Shown here: in pieces, positions 1-13,159 of the stretch
Numbering within the stretch: the first letter of the stretch is position 1
Layout of the letters: each line of letters starts with the position of its first letter
Source of the DNA: a virus
Taxonomy: Duplodnaviria > Heunggongvirae > Uroviricota > Caudoviricetes
Direction: 5' to 3' (one strand)
Virus record (IMG/VR): IMGVR_UViG_2565956714_000001
Coordinates: 1 to 24,851 of that record
Length of the DNA: 24,851 nucleotides
Translations under genes and position numbers: made by a program
Notes under the pieces: generated by a model
Told to the model about the DNA's origin: nothing
The model's database searches: none
Seen by the model: only the letters and a program-made list of their open reading frames with translations

Positions 1-1
1 T

Positions 2-118
2 CAGATGAAAGAATTAATCGGTAACGAAGGAGATATTCATGTCACTTGCAACCACAGTGAAGGAGAGCAAGTTACAGAGACGCATGTACACGCAGAAAGC
101 TCTCTGGTATCGCCATAA
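2..118 (+). CDS. partial ORF open from the window edge (3' end of an upstream early-left gene or a short ORF); function unknown
   Basis: Frame 2 is open from the first base to TAA at 116-118. It sits directly upstream of erf, where P22-type phages carry abc genes (positional analogy only). No RBS is visible inside the window. Confidence 0.3.
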   Translation, partial: QMKELIGNEGDIHVTCNHSEGEQVTETHVHAESSLVSP

Positions 119-219
119 TGGTGACCGCGAAGGAATGCGGGTATGCCTTAATTTGTCCCGAGTCGAAGTATTAAATCAGCGTTATTTCCTTGGGGAATGT
201 CCATTCTGAGAACAAACAT

Positions 220-825
220 ATGAGCAAAGAATTTTACGCAAGGCTGGCAGCTATTCAGGAGAATCTGAACGCGCCAAAGAATCAATACAACTCATTCGGC
301 AAATATAAATACAGAAGCTGCGAAGACATTCTTGAGGGTGTTAAGCCGTTACTGAATGGCCTGTTTTTATCAATCAGCGATGAAGTTGTGTTGATTGGTG
401 ATCGGTATTACGTGAAAGCCACGGCAACTATTACTGATGGCGAAAACAGTCATACAGCAACCGCTCTTGCACGAGAGGAAGAAAGCAAGAAAGGAATGGA
501 TTCTGCACAAGTTACGGGAGCCACAAGCTCTTATGCACGCAAGTATTGCCTCAATGGTTTGTTCGGCATTGATGATGCGAAAGATGCAGATACAGACGAG
601 CATAAACATCAGCAGAACGCAGCAGCAAAGCAATCAAAACCATCACCTACACCTGAACAGGTTCTAAAAGCATTCACTGACGCAGCAATGCAGAAAAACA
701 CCGTGGAAGAGCTTAAACAGGCGTTCGCCAAAGCGTGGAAGATGCTCGAAGGCACACCGGAGCAGCACAAAGCGCAGGACATTTACAACATCAGACGAGA
801 CGAATTAGAAGGAGCGGCTGCTTAA
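220..825 (+). CDS. erf: Erf-family single-strand annealing (essential recombination function) protein
   Basis: The translation from MSKEFYARLAAIQENLNAPKNQYNSFGKYKYRSCEDILEGVKPLL matches P22 Erf as I recall it, including the SSYARKYCLNGLFGIDD segment. I chose the ATG at 220 rather than the ORF-track start at 190 because the remembered Erf N-terminus is MSKEFYARL. Confidence 0.92.
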   Translation: MSKEFYARLAAIQENLNAPKNQYNSFGKYKYRSCEDILEGVKPLLNGLFLSISDEVVLIGDRYYVKATATITDGENSHTATALAREEESKKGMDSAQVTGATSSYARKYCLNGLFGIDDAKDADTDEHKHQQNAAAKQSKPSPTPEQVLKAFTDAAMQKNTVEELKQAFAKAWKMLEGTPEQHKAQDIYNIRRDELEGAAA

Positions 826-1208
826 TGGCACATTCGATTACTGTAAGACTAAACAAGCCCGCAAGAGAGTTTCAGGCTGGGGAAAATATCGGATTCAACA
901 TCCGTGCTGGCGTTCAGTATTACGATCGCCAGACAAAAAAGAAAGAATGGACAAACTACAGCGCCGTTGTATTTGCCAAGCCGGGAGCGCAAGCGGATTA
1001 CTATCGTAGCGTTCTGGTTGAAGGAGGCATTGTAGAAATTACCGGAGAAAACATCAGGGTTGATGTTTATCAGGGGCAAAATGGTCAATCAATCACTCTT
1101 GAATTACTGAATGCAAAGATTGGATTTGCAACCTCAGGAAACAGCCAACAGCAGCAAAGTAGCAATCATCAAAATCATCCTGAATACGACGATTCAATTC
1201 CCTTCTAA
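825..1208 (+). CDS. ssb: phage single-stranded DNA-binding protein (SSB-like, OB-fold) with acidic C-terminal tip
   Basis: ATG at 825-827 overlaps the erf stop (TAATG). The protein ends ...PEYDDSIPF, like the DDDIPF tail of E. coli SSB, after a Gln/Ser-rich linker. The N-terminal ~100 aa are OB-fold-like (RAGVQYYDRQTKKKEWTNYSAVVFAK). The 90-nt upstream extension in the ORF track overlaps erf and is rejected. Confidence 0.8.
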   Translation: MAHSITVRLNKPAREFQAGENIGFNIRAGVQYYDRQTKKKEWTNYSAVVFAKPGAQADYYRSVLVEGGIVEITGENIRVDVYQGQNGQSITLELLNAKIGFATSGNSQQQQSSNHQNHPEYDDSIPF

Positions 1209-1231
1209 AGTAGCAACATAAGGATTCCATT

Positions 1232-1528
1232 ATGCCAGCGCCTCTGTATGGTGCGGATGACCCGCGCCGCTGTTCCGGCAATTCCGTATCGGAGGTGCTG
1301 GATAAATTCAGAAAAAACTACGACCTGATAATGTCTCTACCGCAGGAAACGAAAGAGGAAAAGGAATTTCGCCACTGTATATGGCTTGCAGAGAAAGAAG
1401 AACGCGAGCGAATTTACCAGACATCAATCCGACCATTCCGCAAAGCCACATATACCCACTTCCCTGAATATATCGACCCGCGCCTGCGTAATTACCGCTC
1501 ACGCTATGGCGCTATCAGTAATGACTGA
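1232..1528 (+). CDS. hypothetical early-left protein (98 aa)
   Basis: ORF with an AAGGA RBS about 8 nt upstream (taaggattccattATG). It occupies the position that kil-like genes hold downstream of erf in P22; no motif is recognised. Confidence 0.6.
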
Positions 1529-1548
1529 GGAATTTACCATGAGAGGAC

Positions 1549-1706
1549 TTGCATACAATCCCGGCATTCTTCCGGCAGAAATGATTATTCGCCAACGCGT
1601 AAAGCCAATGCCATCGAGAGAGGAATTGCTTAAGAGAAAGAGTTTCGGTTCTGTTAATGACAACAAATATCTGAATGCGATGTTGCGCAAAGGAGGCAAC
1701 CGGTGA
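1549..1706 (+). CDS. hypothetical small protein (52 aa)
   Basis: GAGGAA RBS 7 nt upstream of the ATG at 1549 (ctgaggaatttaccATG). It sits at the position of c3 in P22-type early-left operons (positional only). The longer ORF-track version from 1386 overlaps the previous gene and lacks an RBS. Confidence 0.5.
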
Positions 1707-1786
1707 CTGGACATGCAGCGATCCTCGACATGTGCTGTGGCAGTCGCATGTTCTGGTTAGATAAGAATGACGAACGGGCGAGATAA
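1703..1786 (+). pseudogene. 27-codon GTG-initiated ORF with a SAM-methyltransferase motif-I-like peptide (ILDMCCGS); possible remnant of a methyltransferase gene
   Basis: Translation [27 protein letters not shown]. The hhDxxxGxG-like pattern resembles methyltransferase motif I, but the frame ends after 27 codons. Very tentative. Confidence 0.15.
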
Positions 1787-1836
1787 GCGATCGGTTAAGT
1801 GCTATAGTAATGCGCTTTTGTATTTATGGAGTGAAT

Positions 1837-2535
1837 ATGAAAAATATCCTACTGGCATCATTGTTAGTGGCATCGCCGGGTGCATTTGCAGCCAGCTTTG
1901 ACTGCCAAAAGGCTTCGACAGCAATCGAACATAAAATCTGCGATAACGAACGTCTGTCAAAATTAGACGAACAGCTTAGCTCTGCCTATTCTAGTGCCCT
2001 CAAAGAAAACCCAGAGAACGCAGACACCATAAAAATGGTTCAACGTCAGTGGGTAAATATGCGTGGAAAACTCACTGATAATAAGGCTCTGGAGCTGGCT
2101 TATCTTATCCAAATTAATGGCCTCAAAGGTTTGGGGAGTTCAGTCAGCGTAACAGCGGCCAATGAGATACCCACGTCGACGCAGAAACATTCTGAAGAGC
2201 AGGAAGAAACAAGTAAGGCAGAAGTTAAGTCGGTCAAGAACGGCAATAAGCTAACCTTAGAGTCATTCCGAGCTAAATATGTAGAAGTAGATGGTGAGTA
2301 TTACAGCACGACATCCATTCCTAGAGGCAGTTCGTTCTTGTTCACTTGCGCCAGTCGTATTGCTGATGACCAAGTGAATGTTTGGAAGAAACATGCAGCC
2401 AAAGAGGGCAAAATCGACCTATTCTTTGAGGTTGAGAATCACTTACACACTGCTATGTTGAACGCCAATTTCCAGAAGTTGAATTCAGACCCTGCCAAAA
2501 GAGGTATTTGTAATCTGATTAACGCAGTGCCGTAA
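1837..2535 (+). CDS. secreted/periplasmic DUF1311-like (lysozyme-inhibitor LprI-like N-terminal domain) protein; phage moron
   Basis: N-terminal signal peptide MKNILLASLLVASPGAFA, then FDCQKASTAIEHKICDNERLSKLDEQLSSAYSSAL, which matches the C..A...E..IC....L..LD..L...Y pattern of DUF1311 as I recall it. GGAG RBS before the ATG at 1837; own terminator downstream. Confidence 0.7.
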   Translation: MKNILLASLLVASPGAFAASFDCQKASTAIEHKICDNERLSKLDEQLSSAYSSALKENPENADTIKMVQRQWVNMRGKLTDNKALELAYLIQINGLKGLGSSVSVTAANEIPTSTQKHSEEQEETSKAEVKSVKNGNKLTLESFRAKYVEVDGEYYSTTSIPRGSSFLFTCASRIADDQVNVWKKHAAKEGKIDLFFEVENHLHTAMLNANFQKLNSDPAKRGICNLINAVP

Positions 2536-2543
2536 GTAAATTT

Positions 2544-2575
2544 AGGGCCACAGTTGTGGCCTTAAATATTTTTTC
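2544..2575 (+). terminator. rho-independent terminator after the DUF1311 gene
   Basis: GGCCAC-agtt-GTGGCC hairpin (2546-2561) followed by a T-rich run (ttaaatattttttc). Confidence 0.6.
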
Positions 2576-2741
2576 AGCCTTTTCTTATTTGTAATAAGCA
2601 GTACTTAGTAGTGCTTATAAAACAGAATAAAAAACATATGACTTTGGCGATTACCCAGTAAAGATATTCGAAATAAATGTAAATATCGGCAATGAATAAC
2701 AATCCTCGCACTCGCGGGGATTTCTTTTATATGGGGATAAT

Positions 2742-3542
2742 ATGACCATCCACTTTCACGGCAGCCCAATATGGGGGGATGAGCATGCCCCTACAGATAT
2801 GCTGATTAAAGCCCTTTACCGTGATGGTGGGGCTTTTGTTTCATTTGCCAGACCAGAGCAGATGAAAAAGATTGCCATGTTCCCTTGTGATATACGCCTT
2901 GATAACGGTGCTTTTAGCGACTGGATGAAAGCATTAAAGAAAGGCACTCCGGTAGACTGGAGTAAGAGACGAGCAAAATTCTACGACTTTGTTGGGAAGT
3001 GGTTCAGCAGAATTGAATGGTTTCTTATACCTGACGTTATCGAAGGGACAGAGGCAGAAAACGACGAGCAGATTGAGTTGGTTCCTGATTGGCTAAAATC
3101 AAAAGCGGTTCCGGTCTGGCATACCGACGAATCAATTGAACGTCTTTTACGCCTTTCTAGCAAATTTGAATGGGTGGCGATTGGATACTGCGGACCACAC
3201 AGGCACATACGCTCTAAATGGTGGGAACAGAGAATGGATGAAGTTTTCACTGAGCTTTATATCAATCGTAATTTGAAAGTGAAAATTCATGGTCTTCGAA
3301 TGCTCGACGTGAGAGTTCTTGGTATGTATCCGTTCGCCAGTGCGGATTCTACTAATGTTGCTGTTAACGTACCGAAGACAGAGAAGCGATTTCCTGAGAT
3401 TACCGACAAACTGGCACGCACAGCTGTACTTCGCGCTGCTATTGAAAAGGTGCACCCGCCATCGATATCAGCATGGGTAGACAGAAAGATGAGAGAGCCG
3501 GCGCAAGCCGGTTTTTTATTTGAATTCACCGACGCCGCTTAA
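2742..3542 (+). CDS. hypothetical 266-aa protein; possible TGT-fold (tRNA-guanine transglycosylase / DpdA-like) enzyme
   Basis: Clean ORF bounded by terminators on both sides. Motifs RLDNGAFS, LIPDVIEG, AIGYCGP and FASADSTNV occur in the order and approximate spacing of TGT-family motifs LTDSGGYQ, AFDEC, LMGVGKP and DMFDCV (from memory). No Cys/His zinc site is present. The functional assignment is speculative; the CDS itself is well supported. Confidence 0.6.
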   Translation: MTIHFHGSPIWGDEHAPTDMLIKALYRDGGAFVSFARPEQMKKIAMFPCDIRLDNGAFSDWMKALKKGTPVDWSKRRAKFYDFVGKWFSRIEWFLIPDVIEGTEAENDEQIELVPDWLKSKAVPVWHTDESIERLLRLSSKFEWVAIGYCGPHRHIRSKWWEQRMDEVFTELYINRNLKVKIHGLRMLDVRVLGMYPFASADSTNVAVNVPKTEKRFPEITDKLARTAVLRAAIEKVHPPSISAWVDRKMREPAQAGFLFEFTDAA

Positions 3543-3561
3543 TGCGGATTTCTTTTATCTG

Positions 3562-3588
3562 AACTCGCTACGGCGAGTTTTGTTTTAT
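3562..3588 (+). terminator. rho-independent terminator after the 266-aa gene
   Basis: AACTCGC-tacg-GCGAGTT hairpin followed by TTTGTTTTAT. Confidence 0.6.
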
Positions 3589-3599
3589 GGAGATGATAA

Positions 3600-3767
3600 A
3601 TGCACTTCCGAGTAACAGGTGAATGGAATGGAGAACCATTCAACAGAGTTATCGAAGCAGAGAACATCAACGACTGCTATGACCACTGGATGCTGTGGGC
3701 GCAGATGGCACATGCAGACGTAACCAATATTCGAATTGAAGAACTGAAAGAACACCAAGCCGCCTGA
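3600..3767 (+). CDS. hypothetical small protein (55 aa)
   Basis: ATG at 3600 preceded by GGAG (3590-3593). The stop codon lies within a GC hairpin followed by a T6 run. Translation MHFRVTGEWNGEPFNRVIEAENINDCYDHWMLWAQMAHADVTNIRIEELKEHQAA. Compact, with its own RBS and terminator. Confidence 0.6.
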   Translation: MHFRVTGEWNGEPFNRVIEAENINDCYDHWMLWAQMAHADVTNIRIEELKEHQAA

Positions 3768-3781
3768 TGGCGGTTTTTTAT
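3758..3781 (+). terminator. rho-independent terminator
   Basis: AGCCGCC-tgat-GGCGGT stem followed by TTTTTTA. Confidence 0.6.
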
Positions 3782-3824
3782 TGCCTGATTTGCAGGTTCG
3801 ATTCCCTATTCGGAGATAGCACTC

Positions 3825-4025
3825 ATGCAACACGAACTACAACCTGATTCACTGGTTGATTTGAAATTCATCATGGCTGATACTGGCTTCGGTAAAACCT
3901 TCATCTACGACCGGATTAAGTCCGGCGACCTGCCAAAAGCCAAAGTTATCCACGGGCGAGCAAGATGGTTATATCGTGACCATTGTGAATTCAAAAATAA
4001 GCTCTTAAGCCGCGCCAATGGGTAA
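3825..4025 (+). CDS. torI: TorI-like excisionase / recombination directionality factor (AlpA/Xis-family winged helix)
   Basis: The 66-aa translation MQHELQPDSLVDLKFIMADTGFGKTFIYDRIKSGDLPKAKVIHGRARWLYRDHCEFKNKLLSRANG matches my recollection of E. coli KplE1 TorI. GGAG RBS 9 nt upstream. Confidence 0.85.
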   Translation: MQHELQPDSLVDLKFIMADTGFGKTFIYDRIKSGDLPKAKVIHGRARWLYRDHCEFKNKLLSRANG

Positions 4026-4086
4026 AATAGCGGGTAAAATATTTCTTACATCTAAAAAACATCATTCCAATCAATCCCCTGCCGAT

Positions 4087-4131
4087 GGTGAGGCTTTATA
4101 GAAAAATACCTCACCATTATTTTGTAATTTT
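4087..4131 (+). terminator. possible terminator downstream of torI
   Basis: GGTGAGG ... CCTCACC stem with a large 15-nt AT loop, followed by attattttgtaatttt. Confidence 0.35.
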
Positions 4132-4140
4132 CGCATAGAT

Positions 4141-4179
4141 AAAAGAAAATAAATCACGAATTGTTTAAATTTGTGATTT
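4141..4179 (-). terminator. probable rho-independent terminator of the tailspike gene
   Basis: On the minus strand: AAATCACAAATT-taaac-AATTCGTGATTT (one mismatch) followed by ATTTTCTTTT. Confidence 0.45.
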
Positions 4180-4226
4180 ATTACACGCAATAATTATCAT
4201 GCTTTATTAAACCCTCCAGCTAATCC

Positions 4227-6293: not shown

Positions 6294-6425
6294 TTAATTT
6301 GCTCCAGATACAAGGAATCACCGCAGCGTGGCTACGGTTGGTGTTTGTTGCATACCGAAATGGTACGATTGTTGATTTGTACAGTAGGTTTTACGATGCC
6401 ATTCCACCCATTTGGTGAGGCATTG

Positions 6426-6683
6426 ATGATGTACAGCAAATACGATGAGGCGCAGTTCCACTTGAGGCTTACGCACGAGTTGCACGCTAAGATTAAGCAA
6501 CGTGCAAAAATGAATAACAGGTCTATCAATTCCGAAATTGTGGCTACGATGGAAGAATCACTCTCCAAACCATCACCTGTAAGCGGGTATCGTGATGAAG
6601 AAGAGAGGCTGGCCTCATTAATCTCGGAACGAGTAAAAGAAGTTGTGGCTGATATCCTTAGAAAAGAAAAAACCCGCAATTAA
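6426..6683 (+). CDS. mnt: Mnt-like ribbon-helix-helix repressor
   Basis: MMYSKYDEAQFHLRLTHELHAKIKQRAKMNNRSINSEIVATMEESLSKPSPVSGYRDEEERLA parallels P22 Mnt as recalled (RHH N-terminus and SKPSPVTGYRNDAERLA C-terminal region). GGTGAGG RBS precedes the ATG. The ORF-track frame from 5955 upstream is antisense to the tailspike and is not counted. Confidence 0.85.
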   Translation: MMYSKYDEAQFHLRLTHELHAKIKQRAKMNNRSINSEIVATMEESLSKPSPVSGYRDEEERLASLISERVKEVVADILRKEKTRN

Positions 6684-6697: not shown

Positions 6698-6919
6698 TTA
6701 GTTATCAAAAAGTCCGTACGTTTCTTCTTCTTCAGGTGTAAGGGGAAGAATCTCTACTCTATCTATAGATACCTTTTCAATGTACCCATGAGGTCTACTT
6801 AAAATTAAAGCTCTCTCATGCCACAGAACTCCAAGAATGTGATACCTTCCAGCATCTCCTTTTACCCTGGCTCTTCCTTTGATTCTTGGCGGCATAATGC
6901 CATATCTTTTCTTTGCCAT
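6698..6919 (-). CDS. hypothetical 73-aa protein, last gene of the arc-ant operon
   Basis: Start overlaps the upstream stop by 1 nt (translational coupling). Translation MAKKRYGIMPPRIKGRARVKGDAGRYHILGVLWHERALILSRPHGYIEKVSIDRVEILPLTPEEEETYGLFDN. No family recognised. Confidence 0.55.
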   Translation of the reverse strand: MAKKRYGIMPPRIKGRARVKGDAGRYHILGVLWHERALILSRPHGYIEKVSIDRVEILPLTPEEEETYGLFDN

Positions 6920-7644
6920 TATGCAACATTGCTCCCATGAATCAGGTGTTGTAGTGCTTTAACACCCTCCGCATTGTAGCGGAATGCTTCCACCTGTTTG
7001 CTTGAATGCGCAGATTTATCCAAGAAGAACTTCCCGTACTGCTCAGTTTTGAGGTTGTTTGCGTTAGCAATGCGACCAATCTTGTTTGCCGTTACTCCAA
7101 GCTGCTCTGCAACCTCCCCTGCTGAGTAGTAATGCTCTTCTATTGCTGGAAGAGGTATTGCATTAAAACCAACTATCGGGTTGATTATGCTTGCTGCCGC
7201 AGTCTGCTTTGCTTCCGGCGCAAGATTTGGCATCAAATCTAACAGATTGGTAACAGCTTCAACCGTCATTTTCAATGTTCGTGCCTGGCGATACTCAACA
7301 AGTCCACTCGACGATTTACCGCTTTTAATGTGCGCTTCTTGCATACTTTCAAGTTTGTCTACAAGTGTTCGGCGAACTGCTTTAGATTCGCGAGCAGCAA
7401 CACGAAGCGCCTGCTTGATAGTCATGGAGATAACATCAATGTCAGCCCCGTTTTTCCGACCTACACTTTTTGTGTAGGTCTCGCCCTCCAATTCATCCTC
7501 AATTTTCTCGATGAATTTGTTGTTACGTACTGATGGCTCTCCACATAACTTGCGAGCTTCATTAACCATCATCAGAAGACTTTGGCTGTCAATGGTTTTA
7601 TCCGTGACAACGGATCCGATGTTTGCTACATTCTTCAAAGTCAT
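6919..7644 (-). CDS. antirepressor-like protein (Rha/KilA-C/ANT-type C-terminal region)
   Basis: Start at MTLKNVANIG with an AAGGAA RBS. The C-terminal HYYSAGEVAEQLGVTANKIGRIANANNLK resembles the DNA-binding segment of ANT/KilA-C antirepressor domains. Co-oriented with the Bro-N gene upstream. Confidence 0.6.
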   Translation of the reverse strand: MTLKNVANIGSVVTDKTIDSQSLLMMVNEARKLCGEPSVRNNKFIEKIEDELEGETYTKSVGRKNGADIDVISMTIKQALRVAARESKAVRRTLVDKLESMQEAHIKSGKSSSGLVEYRQARTLKMTVEAVTNLLDLMPNLAPEAKQTAAASIINPIVGFNAIPLPAIEEHYYSAGEVAEQLGVTANKIGRIANANNLKTEQYGKFFLDKSAHSSKQVEAFRYNAEGVKALQHLIHGSNVA

Positions 7645-7732
7645 TAGGCATTCCTTATGTGGTAGTAAGGGTGTGACATAGGCCGCCAGCAGCACACTGG
7701 CGGTTTTCTTTTTGCGCCGTCCGGCGCACCAA

Positions 7733-8359
7733 TCAATGAATCCATTCCTCGCCGCGCAGTTTTGTCAGCATTGGCTGAGCGTTCTTTACGACAAAATTGT
7801 TGGTATCAAGATTCTTCATTTCACGAAGAAGTGATTTCTTGGTTTCTTCTGACATATAGCGAGTCTCATATGCAATATCGTAAATTCTTCCTGAAAGCTC
7901 AGAACCAATTTGCTTCATTCCTGGGTAGATGTGTTTGCACATTTGTTGACTCTTCTCCATCCACAATTGTAAGTAGCAGAGATTAACCAGTTCTTCGTCA
8001 GTAAACTGTTTTGCAATCGGTGAGCATTCTGCCTGCCGATCCAAAATATCCAGCACCCAGCGGCGGAACTCTTTGGCTACCGGAGTGCGAGCAAACATCG
8101 CGATTAGGTGGGCACCGCGTAGTGAGAAAACTCGCACTTTTTTGCGATAATTTCCTGAGGTACTCACTTCGAGTACCTGAGTCATTCCGGCGCTAAACTC
8201 ATCGCTATACTTGTTATAAATCATTGTTACTGCACGGCTATTTGCATATTTAAGTGCAGATGCAATATTAGATGATGTAAACCAAACACCATGCATATCA
8301 CGGGTGGGCACCAACTCAACTCCGTGGAAGTTGTAATCTGATTTTGCTACAATATTCAT
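7733..8359 (-). CDS. ant: antirepressor, Bro-N domain protein
   Basis: Start at MNIVAKSDY (AAGGAAAC RBS); the ORF-track start at 8464 has no RBS. FHGVELVPTRDMHGVWFTSSNIASALKYANSRAV is Bro-N-like. It lies downstream of the arc-like gene as in P22 immI. Confidence 0.75.
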   Translation of the reverse strand: MNIVAKSDYNFHGVELVPTRDMHGVWFTSSNIASALKYANSRAVTMIYNKYSDEFSAGMTQVLEVSTSGNYRKKVRVFSLRGAHLIAMFARTPVAKEFRRWVLDILDRQAECSPIAKQFTDEELVNLCYLQLWMEKSQQMCKHIYPGMKQIGSELSGRIYDIAYETRYMSEETKKSLLREMKNLDTNNFVVKNAQPMLTKLRGEEWIH

Positions 8360-8437
8360 GTTAGTTTCCTTGCATACGGTTACTGACATAGAGGCCCGGT
8401 TTGTGTTCGCGCACTGCCGGGCTTCACTATTTTTATT
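8360..8437 (+). ncRNA. candidate sar-like antisense RNA covering the ant RBS
   Basis: On the plus strand, an extended -10 element TGcTACAAT (8345-8353) sits just inside the ant 5' end. A directional hairpin GCCCGG...CCGGGC (8394-8422) followed by TTCACTATTTTTATT lies in the arc-ant spacer. Positional analogy to P22 sar. Confidence 0.3.
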
Positions 8438-8606
8438 GGATGACAACATCGCCCTTTGCCTCAAGTTTCATCAATAACTCCATTCGATAAGCTATCTCTG
8501 CCTGAATTGACCTATGGCATCTTTTTGCTGATTCGCGGATATGTGAATCAACCTTTTCTGTAAAACGAACCTGACGCGGCTTGATGGAAGATATCTTTTC
8601 AGTCAT
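8433..8606 (-). CDS. arc: Arc-like ribbon-helix-helix repressor (57 aa)
   Basis: Not in the ORF track (under 60 aa). Translated by hand: MTEKISSIKPRQVRFTEKVDSHIRESAKRCHRSIQAEIAYRMELLMKLEAKGDVVIQ. GGAG RBS 7 nt upstream. It is the first gene of the antirepressor operon, as in P22. Confidence 0.7.
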   Translation of the reverse strand: MTEKISSIKPRQVRFTEKVDSHIRESAKRCHRSIQAEIAYRMELLMKLEAKGDVVIQ

Positions 8607-8655
8607 TATGCACTCCTGTTTTTGAAAAACTCATAATCTCACTTTTTGTAGTTTG

Positions 8656-8684
8656 ATTATTCACTCACACTCAGTATGAGTCAA
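8656..8684 (-). promoter_or_regulatory. Pant-like sigma70 promoter with an embedded palindrome (candidate Arc operator)
   Basis: Minus strand reads TTGACT-17 nt-AATAAT upstream of arc. The inverted repeat ACTCA-gta-TGAGT (8669-8681) overlaps the -35 and spacer. Confidence 0.4.
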
Positions 8685-8705
8685 TGAATTTTTTATGGTG
8701 AACTA

Positions 8706-9347
8706 ATGAATTTTGACGATCAATTCCCATCAAGAGTATCTCTGGCAAGACAGTCCAGGGGTATGACGCAGGCGCAGTTGTCAAAATTAGCTGGTGTTGT
8801 TCAACGTCAAATAGCTGCATACGAGGGTGGTGAGGCTAAACCACGGCTTCGTGTATTGCAGGCATTAGCCAACGCATTAGGCACTACGGCTGAGTGGTTA
8901 GCTCTGGGTGAAGGTCAGGGGCCTGGAACAAAAAACGTCATGCCTGACGTTCTGGTAAAGCAAATACCAATCCTCAAACTAGATGAAGTTATGCATTACC
9001 TAAACACAGGTGAACATTCATCGTCTAGATTTCATCCGGCAATATACAATGTTGGTGACTCTGCATTTGCATTGACTATTGAAGGTGAAGCTATGACTAC
9101 AAGTTCAGGTATTAGCTTTCCCAGAGGATCAGTTGTCACGTTCAGCCCTCTAGTAAAAGCTAAAAGCAAAGATTATGTAATAGCATCATTGGATAAAGAG
9201 CAAATATTGAGCTTCAAGCAGGTTTACATTGGTGAAATAGAGACAAACTTAGTATCCCTAAACCCAATGTATCCTAATATTCTTGTTAGAAATGAAGATG
9301 TTAGTATTTTGGCAACCGCAGTTTACCTTGAAATCCCGTTGCTTTGA
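8706..9347 (+). CDS. lambda-CI-like regulator: XRE-type HTH plus S24 (LexA-like) C-terminal domain with catalytic Ser replaced by Ala
   Basis: N-terminal HTH MTQAQLSKLAGVVQRQIAAYEGGEAKPRLRVLQALANALGTTAEWLALGE. The C-terminal VGDSAFALTIEGEAMTTSSGISFPRGSVVTF aligns to lambda CI [33 protein letters not shown], with GCT (Ala, 9090-9092) where CI has the nucleophile Ser. The Lys of the dyad is retained (LSFKQVY vs FTFKKLI). No Ala-Gly cleavage motif is seen in the linker. Confidence 0.8.
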   Translation: MNFDDQFPSRVSLARQSRGMTQAQLSKLAGVVQRQIAAYEGGEAKPRLRVLQALANALGTTAEWLALGEGQGPGTKNVMPDVLVKQIPILKLDEVMHYLNTGEHSSSRFHPAIYNVGDSAFALTIEGEAMTTSSGISFPRGSVVTFSPLVKAKSKDYVIASLDKEQILSFKQVYIGEIETNLVSLNPMYPNILVRNEDVSILATAVYLEIPLL

Positions 9348-9411
9348 TATCCTTTAGGAAGCGACACATTATCATCCGGTGTTCTGCTCAAAACTAAGGA
9401 GTGGCTACTCA

Positions 9412-10050
9412 ATGAAAAAAATAGATATATATAGCGATACATCAGCCTATGTCATAGGCTCATTGGGTTTTTTAATTTTTTTTGTTTGGCAGTACCAGTC
9501 ACTATCTCCAGGATGGAGATTTTTGGGGATGTCTTTGATATCACTTGGTGCAGGAATAGCAACGCAGGTGTTGATGTATCTCTTTAATGGATGGATCTCA
9601 AAAAGAGTTGAGAAAAAAAGAGCTACTTCAATATGTAGAAGCCTAGCTATTCCAGAAGACTCTACAGATCAGGATGATATTGCAAAATGTTGGCGGTATA
9701 TGATTGCAAGATACTCAAATGAGTTACTGGCAAACAGACTGTCCGACTTAATCGGGATCGTAGTTACCTCTGTTGGAACAATCATCAGTATAGGGATATC
9801 AATTTGGTATGTCGGGATGATTGTCTATTTTGTTTGGAATAGAGACTTCAATGAACCTTCCCTTCTTTTTATACCTTTATTTTTCAGGGTATTAGCATTC
9901 ATATGTGAGTTATTGCTCTCTTTTTTCTGCAATGTTTTGTTCAACAGATACCCAGGTGAAGCAAGAAAGTTTAATAAAAACTATGATGAGTTAAGGAGAA
10001 CAGATCCTTTTCTATCAAGCAAAGAGTTCCGCGATTCCATTCGCAATTAA
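9412..10050 (+). CDS. inner-membrane protein with four predicted TM helices; possible SieA-like superinfection exclusion protein
   Basis: AGGAG RBS before the ATG at 9412. Four hydrophobic segments are visible in the translation. The DNA is AT-rich. It occupies the slot where P22 has sieA; the function is positional inference only. Confidence 0.55.
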   Translation: MKKIDIYSDTSAYVIGSLGFLIFFVWQYQSLSPGWRFLGMSLISLGAGIATQVLMYLFNGWISKRVEKKRATSICRSLAIPEDSTDQDDIAKCWRYMIARYSNELLANRLSDLIGIVVTSVGTIISIGISIWYVGMIVYFVWNRDFNEPSLLFIPLFFRVLAFICELLLSFFCNVLFNRYPGEARKFNKNYDELRRTDPFLSSKEFRDSIRN

Positions 10051-10097
10051 CAACATCCATGACATCAACCCTTAGCGATCAGTTGCATCATTGGCAA

Positions 10098-10100
10098 GTA
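10098..10100. repeat. IS3 target-site duplication, left copy (GTA)
   Basis: GTA immediately outside the IS3 left inverted repeat; the same trinucleotide is at 11359-11361. Confidence 0.7.
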
Positions 10101-10165
10101 TGATCTTACCCAGCAATAGTGGACACGCGGCTAAGTGAGTAAACTCTCAGTCAGAGGTGACTCAC

Positions 10166-10465
10166 ATGACAAAAACAGTATCAACCAGTAAAAAACCCCG
10201 TAAACAGCATTCGCCTGAATTTCGCAGTGAAGCCCTGAAGCTTGCTGAACGCATCGGTGTTACTGCCGCAGCCCGTGAACTCAGCCTGTATGAATCACAG
10301 CTCTACAACTGGCGCAGTAAACAGCAAAATCAGCAGACGTCTTCTGAACGTGAACTGGAGATGTCTACCGAGATTGCACGTCTCAAACGCCAGCTGGCAG
10401 AACGGGATGAAGAGCTGGCTATCCTCCAAAAGGCCGCGACATACTTCGCGAAGCGCCTGAAATGA
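10166..10465 (+). CDS. insE: IS3 transposase OrfA (InsE, HTH)
   Basis: [54 protein letters not shown]... matches the recalled IS3 InsE. Confidence 0.92.
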
Positions 10466-11328
10466 AGTATGTCTTTATTGAAAAACATCAGGCTGAGTTC
10501 AGCATCAAAGCAATGTGCCGCGTGCTCCGGGTGGCCCGCAGCGGCTGGTATACGTGGTGTCAGCGGCGGACAAGGATAAGCACGCGTCAGCAGTTCCGCC
10601 AACACTGCGACAGCGTTGTCCTCGCGGCTTTTACCCGGTCAAAACAGCGTTACGGTGCCCCACGCCTGACGGATGAACTGCGTGCTCAGGGTTACCCCTT
10701 TAACGTAAAAACCGTGGCGGCAAGCCTGCGCCGTCAGGGACTGAGGGCAAAGGCCTCCCGGAAGTTCAGCCCGGTCAGCTACCGCGCACACGGCCTGCCT
10801 GTGTCAGAAAATCTGTTGGAGCAGGATTTTTACGCCAGTGGCCCGAACCAGAAGTGGGCAGGAGACATCACGTACTTACGTACAGATGAAGGCTGGCTGT
10901 ATCTGGCAGTGGTCATTGACCTGTGGTCACGTGCCGTTATTGGCTGGTCAATGTCGCCACGCATGACGGCGCAACTGGCCTGCGATGCCCTGCAGATGGC
11001 GCTGTGGCGGCGTAAGAGGCCCCGGAACGTTATCGTTCACACGGACCGTGGAGGCCAGTACTGTTCAGCAGATTATCAGGCGCAACTGAAGCGGCATAAT
11101 CTGCGTGGAAGTATGAGCGCAAAAGGTTGCTGCTACGATAATGCCTGCGTGGAAAGCTTCTTTCATTCGCTGAAAGTGGAATGTATCCATGGAGAACACT
11201 TTATCAGCCGGGAAATAATGCGGGCAACGGTGTTTAATTATATCGAATGTGATTACAATCGGTGGCGGCGGCACAGTTGGTGTGGCGGCCTCAGTCCGGA
11301 ACAATTTGAAAACAAGAACCTCGCTTAG
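10462..11328 (+). CDS. insF: IS3 transposase OrfB (InsF, DDE catalytic domain); expressed as an OrfAB fusion by -1 frameshift
   Basis: [36 protein letters not shown]... with DDE-type motifs ([17 protein letters not shown]). It overlaps insE in the -1 frame. Confidence 0.92.
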
Positions 11329-11341
11329 GCCTGTGTCCATA

Positions 11342-13159
11342 TTACGTGGGTAGGATCAGTATTGGTCTGATGGCATTTGCGGCGTTATTCAGCGCTCTTT
11401 CATAGGCTGGCGTTCCAGCTTTAGTGTTTGCCAGACGTAAGAGCGCATTCCTTGCTGCTTTGGACTCATACAAGCGCATCATTGCACCGAAACCAGCCTC
11501 AAGCCCCATTGATACGCCAAGAGTCGCAGTTGCGCCAATCGTCCTTATCCTGTTGGCTTGCGATTGCCCCGTCTGAGTTACTACATTTGCGGTGTCTGAC
11601 CTTGCTGTTTGCTGTAGAACTTCATTAAGAGCATCAAGTTCTTTCATGTGCTTTCCAGAAAAAATAGTGTTGTAAATTTCACCTCCTGACTGAGATTTCA
11701 GCTTATTAACTTCAGTGATGAACTTGGCTGGAGAGTCACCGGCCTTTTCCGCTATTTTGCTGACGTAAGCTGCACGCATAGCATCTTTCCCTTTATCATC
11801 CAGTGCGCTCCAGATTCGTTTCACGTCAGATGGTTTTCTGCTTAATACAACGGTATTTATAAGTTCAGGACTGGCTTCACTGCTTGCCTTGTTGAGCTTG
11901 TTGGCAATGTTTTTATTAAGCACCTTATTATAAACGTTTGCATAATCGGAATTTGCTTTAAGGTATTTTGCTGCGTCTGATGCACCGAGGTTTTTAGCAA
12001 CTGCGTTACGAAGGTCTTTTGACATTGCATTCTCTACCATATTGGTAGCTGCTTTTGCCTGGTTGGGGAAGACCATAGCATCTCCCTGAACATTAGATCT
12101 AAATGCTGTTCTGTGCTGACGCAAGAGATCAAACGTAACATCCAAATCAGTTGCAGGGTTTGCTAATTCTTCACGTAGGTTACGCAAGGATGTAAGCAGG
12201 CTTTGATTGGCTGAAGTCCCAAGCCGTTCCTGTCTTGCGATCGCTGTATTCAGAGCATTCATGGTATTTGTGGTATCAACTGCGGCATTACCCATTTTAT
12301 TGGTGACGTCATTGATAACAGCGCCAGCAGCATCCTTCCGCCCCCTTAACGTGGTGGTCAGAGATTTCACCACATCATCAGGGTTGTACTCACCAAAACG
12401 GTCAAAATAATTGCTTACCAGCTTACTACGCGTTGCATATTGCTCCGCTCGCTTTGAGCCTGTCCCGAGCAAAGCCCCCTCGGCATCCTGAGTAAGGCCG
12501 CGAGTGAAAGCATTTTTCGGCGGGATAACATCAGATGTCATTGGTGTCACGCCCATCGATTCTGATGTGGCAATTTTCTTCGCCACTTCTGGCGCAATAT
12601 CACCTTTTATAGCCGTTATTCCACGCCCTATTCCCTTTGCTGCTGCGGAAAGAACACCCTGAGCGGCAAGGTTAACTCCGGCATTTTTAGCTGCATTTTG
12701 TGCGAAATCGCCTTTCTGATTTGCGGCCTCTGCCAGTGATCCAATAGCCATGCTTCCTGCCGTTCCAACTCCTGGAACTAAATACCCGCCAATTGTTTCT
12801 CCAGCTTGCGCATAAGGGTCTGTTGGTCGATCTACTGGACGATAGACATCGTCCAAAACCTTGGGGCCACCAAGCCCCTGGCTGATTGCATTAATCAGAC
12901 TTGCGCCACCCTGCAATACGTCAAATGGTATATTTACCAGACCACGACCAGCCTGCTCTGCAATTTGCCCTGCACTTTGACCACCAGTGAGCAAGTCAGT
13001 AGCTTTTTCTACCAGAGATTGTTCTTCTGGCTGCGATTGGTTTTGAGTGGATTGATCACCAGAAGACAGCATCTGAGCAATGCGACGTGCTCCCTCAGTA
13101 TCACCAGCAGCATCAGCATTCCTTAACGCCGTCATCAATTGTTCACGACTATAGGCCAT
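11342..13159 (-). CDS. ejection (pilot/internal) protein, P22 gp16-like; C-terminus altered by the IS3 insertion
   Basis: 605-aa ORF at the gene 16 position, co-oriented and coupled to the gp20-like gene. Its last codons and stop (11342-11358) lie inside the IS3 right end. Confidence 0.8.
11359..11361. repeat. IS3 target-site duplication, right copy (GTA)
   Basis: GTA immediately after the IS3 right end, identical to 10098-10100. Confidence 0.7.

Follow-up and report, generated by a model that had tools for sequence, protein, structure and literature searches.

A CI-like regulator lacking the S24 nucleophile occupies the mnt position in an alternative immI cassette of a P22-like prophage

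In phage P22, the immI module lies between gene 16 and the tailspike gene 9, and the genes follow the order 16, sieA, orf59a, mnt, a 90-bp Pant/Pmnt region, arc, sar, ant and 9. The related ant moron of HS-1 was described by Villafane et al. (2008) as seemingly without arc, so that the control of ant must differ from that in P22 (PMC2629481), and the superinfection exclusion proteins encoded by sieA were divided into types A, B and C by Leavitt et al. (2024) (PMC10883804). Here, we analysed positions 1 to 24,851 of the IMG/VR virus record IMGVR_UViG_2565956714_000001 (24,851 nucleotides; hereafter the window, to which all coordinates refer), which represents a P22-like (Lederbergvirus-type) prophage. 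The region between its gene 16 and tailspike gene is an ant moron (immI region) of the HS1 type, where a CI-like protein composed of a helix-turn-helix (HTH) domain and an S24-fold domain is encoded in the place of mnt. We put the probability at roughly 65% that this regulator is a Mnt analogue, that is, a RecA-insensitive maintenance repressor of the ant promoter, residing in a conserved alternative immI cassette. The analysis established the domain structure of the regulator, the loss of its catalytic residues, the purifying selection acting on it, the conservation and the exchange of the cassette, and the identity and autonomy of the adjoining SieA.

The stretch 8400–10101 showed 100% DNA identity to prophage HS1 of Escherichia coli HS, and 8400–9401 showed 98.5% identity to phage JEP4. 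In none of the complete E. coli genomes was the window present as a whole, the highest coverage being 66%. The genes are arranged as gene 16 (−), a sieA-like gene (+), the CI-like gene (+), a 99-bp gap, a gene for a 57-aa protein (−) and ant (−), followed by a second ant-type gene (−), a 73-aa open reading frame (ORF; −), an mnt homologue (+) and the tailspike gene (−); when the window is flipped, this is the same order as in P22. The position between the homologues of genes 16 and 9 and the presence of an ant gene are those of an immI module, and the first gene of the ant operon encodes an Arc-type ribbon-helix-helix (RHH) protein, although only as a distant member recognised through a family profile. 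The 57-aa protein alone matched Pfam Arc below the threshold (E = 0.011), while the profile of the family of 57-aa proteins matched Arc, AmrZ, CopG and Mnt in PDB (E = 9e-5 to 0.013). An RHH-type Mnt is not found divergent from this arc-like gene, and the HTH–S24 protein holds that place. An earlier note on this DNA, made from the sequence alone, had located the regulator divergent from arc-ant where P22 has mnt, and this placement, between genes 16 and 9, was correct.

The regulator contained HTH_3 (PF01381) at residues 14–65 (E = 9e-13) and Peptidase_S24 (PF00717) at residues 108–206 (E = 1.3e-12), both over the curated Pfam cut-offs. In phmmer searches against PDB, its N-terminal part was similar to the N-terminal domain of the 434 repressor (E = 4e-6) and residues 108–206 were similar to the C-terminal domain of lambda CI (E = 1e-7), with EGEAMTT of the regulator paired with EGNSMTA of lambda CI, and SFKQV with TFKKL. 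In both the phmmer and the MAFFT alignments, Ala129 (GCT, 9090–9092) fell in the column of the nucleophiles Ser149 of lambda CI and Ser119 of LexA. The general base was retained as Lys171 (AAG, 9216–9218, within SFKQV), which corresponds to Lys192 of lambda CI and Lys156 of LexA. Regarding the cleavage site, Val-Met was aligned to Ala111-Gly112 of lambda CI when the regulator was aligned with lambda CI and E. coli LexA using MAFFT, an alignment that is less sure in the linker than in the domains; no AG or CG dipeptide occurs within residues 66–107, and the sole Ala-Gly dipeptide of the protein (A29-G30) lies within the HTH.

The structure predicted with AlphaFold2 from 23 homologues (predicted local distance difference test score, 86.5) was similar to the full-length lambda repressor (3bdn; E = 2e-11) and to the lambda CI C-terminal domain (1f39; TM-score 0.84, root-mean-square deviation 1.8 Å, 32% identity), and the next structural matches were LexA and UmuD'. 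The model has five helices at residues 7–67, and a helix at residues 92–101 replaces the strand-loop that carries the cleavage site in LexA and CI. Ala129 is not an error, because the identical protein recurs in phage JEP4, E. coli HS and 24 IMG/VR contigs. The corresponding substitutions in LexA (S119A) and lambda CI (S149A) are established to prevent cleavage. As the fold is S24-like, the nucleophile is gone, the Lys is kept and the scissile bond is absent, canonical RecA-stimulated self-cleavage is not expected, and the alignments and the model support a CI/LexA-fold paralogue that is predicted to be non-cleavable via the canonical RecA route. The earlier note had reached the same reading: it had recognised an HTH and a C-terminal domain like that of lambda CI, a GCT Ala codon at the nucleophile position with the dyad Lys kept, and a linker without an Ala-Gly site, and had concluded that the protein is a naturally non-cleavable CI paralogue. 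All of these points were borne out by the Pfam, phmmer and MAFFT results, and profile alignment and structure prediction of the C-terminal domain, the check proposed in that note, upheld both the S24 fold and the Ala. PADLOC returned only generic HTH matches for the regulator and the membrane protein encoded next to it and no defence system, NCBIfam gave no match above the cut-off, and a literature search, conducted mostly in papers available without subscription, retrieved no published description of this regulator.

All 10 codon differences between the regulator genes of the window and JEP4 are synonymous (0 nonsynonymous). In comparison with the relative L006, which also carries Ala, the C-terminal domain showed a nonsynonymous divergence (pN) of 0.21 and a synonymous divergence (pS) of 0.74, the latter being saturated. 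The C-terminal domain is thus under purifying selection and still maintained although catalytically dead, presumably for dimerisation and cooperativity, as in CI. A relative with 81% identity (L004/P0003) has Ser at the nucleophile position (TCT, in place of GCT in the window), and in a separate clade (L051/L053) the Ala is encoded by GCA beside relatives with TCA. Judging from these codons, the change from Ser to Ala is recent and recurrent, and the nucleophile has been lost independently at least twice. More distant family members carry Ala or Gly at the nucleophile position and Arg, Met or Val for Lys. The cleavage site is absent in nearly all family members, with Ala-Gly at the aligned position in P0016/L009 only. 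The regulator family as a whole seems, from its sequences, to be drifting away from self-cleavage, and its members would form a natural succession from an S24 protease domain to a decayed one that serves oligomerisation alone. Many relatives (P0012–P0021 and loci L044–L068; 260–290 aa) also have an extra C-terminal tail of ~50–60 residues that includes a conserved heptad-like segment, such as RLxxLEEKLDxLL; this tail is absent from the clade of the window.

Relatives of the regulator were gathered from the protein database, their contigs and IMG/VR, resulting in 42 distinct cassettes with 33–100% identity. The regulator gene was divergent from a small ORF in all 42 cassettes, and this ORF encoded a recognisable 56–57-aa RHH protein in 41 of them, the remaining one being unclear. 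The intergenic distance was 95–112 bp, mostly 97–101 bp. Among the 37 cassettes whose next gene was scanned for domains, Bro-N was the most frequent (21), followed by P22_AR_N and P22_AR_C (11 each), ANT (3), and KilA-N and pRha (2 each). The cassettes were hosted by P22-like podoviruses and by lambda-like siphoviruses, in the latter inside tail gene clusters; given its occurrence in contigs of both types, the cassette behaves as a mobile moron across phage morphotypes. In the siphovirus contigs L004 and L010, it sits near the tape-measure, minor-tail and tail-tip genes. Isolated phages with a relative were limited to JEP4 and Providencia phage PSTNGR2lys.

E. coli NC22 has a different segment where the window has ~8437–9362, the stretch from the RHH gene through the intergenic region to the CI-like gene; in the same orientations, this segment encodes a P22-type Arc of 63 aa and a Mnt-type protein of 83 aa that is intact. 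To either side, NC22 and the window are ~99% identical: one flank contains the ant gene, and the other contains the junction ACATTATCATCCGG together with sieA. This swap indicates that the two regulators and the control region move as one unit before the same ant gene, and no other comparative evidence argues as strongly that the CI-like protein would act in the role of Mnt, and the 57-aa protein in that of Arc.

In the divergent control region, a promoter scan detected a leftward sigma-70-like promoter (−35 TTGACT at 8684–8679, a 17-nt spacer and −10 AATAAT at 8661–8656). ACTCA-type elements are located at 8629–8633, 8637–8641 and 8669–8673, an inverted TGAGT at 8677–8681 overlaps the −35 of this promoter, and a Shine-Dalgarno-like GGTGA is present at 8695–8699. 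For comparison, 33 distinct cassettes from two main subgroups were used; intergenic profiles anchored at either end were blurred by 1–3-bp indels and were re-anchored on GTCAA, which lies 25–28 nt upstream of the regulator ATG in all 33. The leftward ant −35 and a TAT-rich −10 at the right spacing were likewise found in every one of these cassettes. The gaps between inverted ACTCA copies peaked at 3 nt and at 33–43 nt, and the copies at the larger distance lie downstream of the likely start site. The palindrome with the 3-nt gap, ACTCA-N3-TGAGT, is perfect in the window (ACTCAgtaTGAGT at 8669–8681) but occurs in only 9 of the 33 cassettes, and we do not claim it as a simple dimer operator. The promoter and the ACTCA elements are conserved together with the HTH, whose recognition helix RQIAAYEG is invariant across the family, whereas the beta-strand of the RHH protein differs between subgroups. 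The conserved ACTCA elements were therefore assigned to the HTH protein, as its candidate sites.

According to the mechanism that we propose, the mnt–Omnt/Pant–arc cassette of P22 would have been replaced by a non-homologous one, composed of the dead-S24 HTH protein, the 99-bp divergent region and a diverged RHH protein. In a lysogen, the CI-like protein would be produced from a weak rightward promoter and would occupy, as a dimer or higher oligomer, the ACTCA/TGAGT-type sites that bracket and overlap the leftward ant −35, thereby keeping the antirepressor genes silent in the way that Mnt does in P22. The only role of the S24-fold domain would be in dimerisation and cooperativity. With neither the Ser nucleophile nor the Ala-Gly site, the CI-like repressor would not be removed by RecA, and SOS induction would proceed via the canonical C2-type repressor rather than Ant. 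The RHH protein, co-produced with Ant, would limit the operon after derepression, like Arc, and sieA may share the regulator transcript without needing the regulator. In this scheme, DNA binding, the assignment of operators and the direction of regulation are what we infer. Prophage HS1 possesses a separate canonical C2-type repressor, with VSAG (Ala-Gly), KGDSM and FKK, encoded beside cro and cII; hence, the role of immunity repressor does not fall to the immI regulator, which is an additional, non-inducible CI-like protein. The copy number of the HS1 prophage rises after mitomycin C, as reported in a 2026 preprint (bioRxiv 10.64898/2026.05.19.726188).

Several observations weigh against a Mnt-like repressor of this kind. 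Most relatives keep both Ser and Lys, and the family may not be uniformly inactive. The window contains a true Mnt homologue elsewhere (6396–6683), and the promoter scan yielded no convincing rightward promoter for the regulator gene. The assignment of operators is ambiguous: only 9 of the 33 cassettes have the ACTCA-N3-TGAGT palindrome, and the promoter alone may account for the conservation of the most conserved element, which falls on the −35 hexamer. Furthermore, the regulator could activate instead of repress.

In one alternative, the regulator is a sensor or activator and not a maintenance repressor: on binding of a protein or a small molecule as the signal to its dead protease domain, it would switch on the ant operon, which would be an SOS-independent induction with a logic like that of the transcription factor and small-protein modules of Silpe et al. 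(2023). The regulator is indeed divergent to an induction-promoting operon, its C-terminal domain is under purifying selection without catalysis, and divergent regulator–antirepressor modules have a published precedent (PMC10432266); however, an ant promoter with a near-consensus −35 and a good −10 should need no activator, the conserved TGAGT over the −35 is in a repressor-like position, and the cassette is exchanged for mnt-arc, in which Mnt is a repressor, making such an activator unlikely. In a further reading, the dead S24 domain is the receiver for a non-RecA signal (a partner protein, Ant or a metabolite) in an undescribed antirepressor switch widespread among Enterobacterales phages. 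This idea is tentative and, in our estimation, rather unlikely; if true, it would provide these prophages with an SOS-independent induction pathway and would explain the repeated decay of the catalytic and cleavage sites under continued purifying selection. It is very unlikely that the protein is an orphan heteroimmunity repressor, directed against incoming phages or other prophages with matching operators and having no control over the neighbouring operon. Its CI-like architecture, its location in a moron region expressed in lysogens and its non-inducibility, which suits a standing defence, would agree with such a role, but the linkage to the RHH-ant operon is fixed at ~100 bp in all 42 cassettes, the intergenic region is swapped along with the regulator, and the HTH recognition helix does not vary, whereas immunity specificities would be expected to diversify. 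That the regulator still responds to RecA, through non-canonical cleavage or through binding of RecA* without cleavage, with Ant then being SOS-inducible, is highly improbable. Such a response would fit the retention of Lys171 and of the overall fold, the presence of both Ser and Lys in most relatives, and the rise of HS1 after mitomycin C, though the canonical C2-type repressor suffices to explain this rise. On the other hand, the nucleophile position is Ala, a substitution with which neither LexA nor lambda CI cleaves, the linker has no Ala-Gly or Cys-Gly, and helix 92–101 of the model stands where LexA and CI have the cleavage-site strand-loop.

The earlier note had also suggested that the CI-like protein and the membrane protein encoded downstream could act together in exclusion or immunity, as a two-gene module not described before in this phage group. 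Both genes lie side by side on one strand, and the 64 bp that separate them contain no terminator-like site. The description of the downstream product as a four-helix membrane protein in the sieA slot holds for the slot and the hydrophobic segments, but the protein is more than an occupant of that slot, being a SieA homologue. The ORF is AT-rich (GC 0.36–0.38), and its four hydrophobic segments correspond to 4–5 transmembrane helices. The product matched phrog_7745 ‘SieA-like’ (E = 6.5e-21) and P22 SieA (27.7% identity over residues 44–202; tblastn, E = 1e-11), and the SieA motif FxRYPxEAxxFNK is present as FNRYPGEARKFNK at residues 177–189. A promoter-like site for sieA is located at 9344–9372. 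The type B sieA of HS1, cloned in Salmonella with 106 bp of upstream sequence, conferred full exclusion of P22, L, MG40, MG178 and LP7 (PMC10883804). We infer that this published gene is the ORF in the window, based on the 100% DNA identity and on its being the sole sieA homologue in the slot. The 106-bp upstream fragment corresponds to 9306–9411 and includes only the last 14 codons of the regulator gene, which means that SieA-B works alone.

The distribution of the two genes points in the same direction. Of 5,426 complete E. coli genomes, 28 carried the regulator gene, 21 this sieA allele and 4 the regulator–sieA junction, 3 of these last being strain HS; in other words, the two genes adjoin in only 4 of the 45 complete genomes with either gene. 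JEP4 has the regulator without sieA, with other DNA downstream, and NC22 has the same sieA with mnt-arc in place of the regulator. Being so seldom together, the regulator and sieA are independent mosaic units. A conserved downstream membrane gene was found in none of the 42 cassettes, while the upstream operon (the small ORF and ant-type genes) was found in all 42, and the real partners of the regulator are the genes on the side away from sieA. The joint module is already contradicted by the autonomous action of SieA-B, by the rare adjacency and by the separation in JEP4 and NC22, and it is rejected as having next to no chance of being correct. SieA is an independent, already characterised module that adds nothing new here.

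Table 1. Features of the ant moron in the window.
Feature	Position	Strand	Description
Mnt homologue	6396..6683	+	95 aa, 48% identity to P22 Mnt; beside tailspike gene
73-aa ORF	6698..6919	−	after second antirepressor-type gene
Second antirepressor-type gene	6919..7695	−	phrog_1726
Antirepressor	7733..8359	−	Bro-N + P22AR_C; 208 aa from ATG at 8359
RHH protein, distant Arc analogue	8433..8606	−	57 aa; first gene of leftward ant operon
Divergent control region	8607..8705	.	99 bp between 57-aa gene and regulator gene
CI-like regulator	8706..9347	+	213 aa; XRE-type HTH (residues 14–65), linker, S24/LexA-fold C-terminal domain (residues 108–206)
sieA type B	9412..10050	+	212 aa; inner-membrane superinfection exclusion protein

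The features of the moron are listed in Table 1. For the antirepressor, the mechanical ORF starts from TTG at 8464 and has a length of 243 aa. The second antirepressor-type gene and the 73-aa ORF lengthen the ant operon, and the E. coli HS equivalent of the former (6919–7695) is a pseudogene adjoining a different IS3 copy. The Mnt homologue is convergent with the end of the ant operon. Its inclusion in the conserved cassette was rejected, since such a homologue was found within ~3.5 kb in only 3 of the 42 cassettes. The 102 bp between this gene and the tailspike start contain a small palindrome, TACCgaaatGGTA, at 6353–6365. On the plus strand, 8358–8440, antisense to the junction of the 57-aa gene and ant, forms two hairpins followed by a U-rich tail (−35.1 kcal/mol, z −4.8), where the first hairpin spans the ant start codon; an extended −10-like TGCTACAAT lies nearby at 8343–8351. 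This element remains with the ant gene when NC22 exchanges the regulator cassette.

An IS3 element of 1,258 bp (10101–11358), accompanied by a 3-bp duplication of the target (GTA), interrupts the 3' end of the homologue of gene 16, which encodes an ejection protein, and the flanks of the insertion are 10072–10100 and 11359–13159. As a result of the insertion, the last 7 residues of gp16 (ANDATDR in HS) are changed to ILPT; HS, JEP4 and NC22 have no insertion sequence at this site. In P22, mutations that escape SieA map to the C-terminal region of gp16 (PMC10883804). At the other end, 1–4226 carries the recombination genes erf (190–825) and abc2 (1232–1528) close to the tailspike gene, with only two ORFs, 1810–2535 (a weak LprI-like match) and 2742–3542, between abc2 and tailspike. 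HS, JEP4 and NC22 have integrase or other genes after the tailspike gene, and the arrangement in the window suggests a deletion or rearrangement in this prophage.

Overall, the CI-like regulator provides a concrete candidate for a point open since 2008, namely how ant is controlled in HS-1-type ant morons without recognisable arc or mnt. The swap of unrelated cassettes, RHH/RHH and HTH-S24/RHH, before the same ant gene represents a non-orthologous replacement of a genetic switch. The labels ‘repressor protein C2’ (JEP4) and ‘LexA family’ are misleading in that they suggest an SOS-inducible immunity repressor.

The locus in the window resembles the immI region of P22 (mnt – Pant/Pmnt – arc – sar – ant) in its place between genes 16 and 9 and in the order and orientation of its genes. 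In both, the divergent control region measures ~90–100 bp, the ant operon starts with a small RHH gene and continues with antirepressor genes, and sieA lies on the far side of the divergent repressor gene. The hairpins at 8358–8440 are the positional equal of the P22 sar antisense RNA, although Rfam gave no match to a sar family and only a chance-level symR hit (21.8 bits, compared with a gathering score of 61). The locus differs from P22 in that the divergent repressor is a 213-aa HTH protein with an S24 fold and not an 82-aa RHH protein, in that the Arc analogue is so diverged that HS-1 was reported without Arc (PMC2629481), in that there are two antirepressor-type genes, and in that the putative operators show no relation to Omnt/Oarc. 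The sieA gene is no different from the type B gene of HS1 and occupies the same position between genes 16 and 9, and its product has ~25–28% identity to P22 SieA together with an N-terminal extension; regarding the surroundings, the window alone has the IS3 just downstream, in the 3' end of gene 16. With lambda CI, P22 C2 and LexA, the regulator shares the N-terminal DNA-binding domain, the linker, the S24 beta-fold C-terminal domain and the retained Lys, whereas it has Ala in place of Ser, lacks Ala-Gly, is not the primary immunity repressor, and is partnered with a divergent RHH-ant operon instead of cro. The repressors of Gifsy-1 and Gifsy-3 (Lemire et al. 2011, PMC3121763) are also lambdoid-type repressors that RecA does not cleave, with antirepressors in the circuit. 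In Gifsy, however, Ant acts on the non-cleavable protein, which serves there as the primary repressor, and host LexA controls ant (PMC3121763), whereas here, in a comparison by circuit only, the non-cleavable protein is the putative regulator of ant and the primary repressor is canonical.

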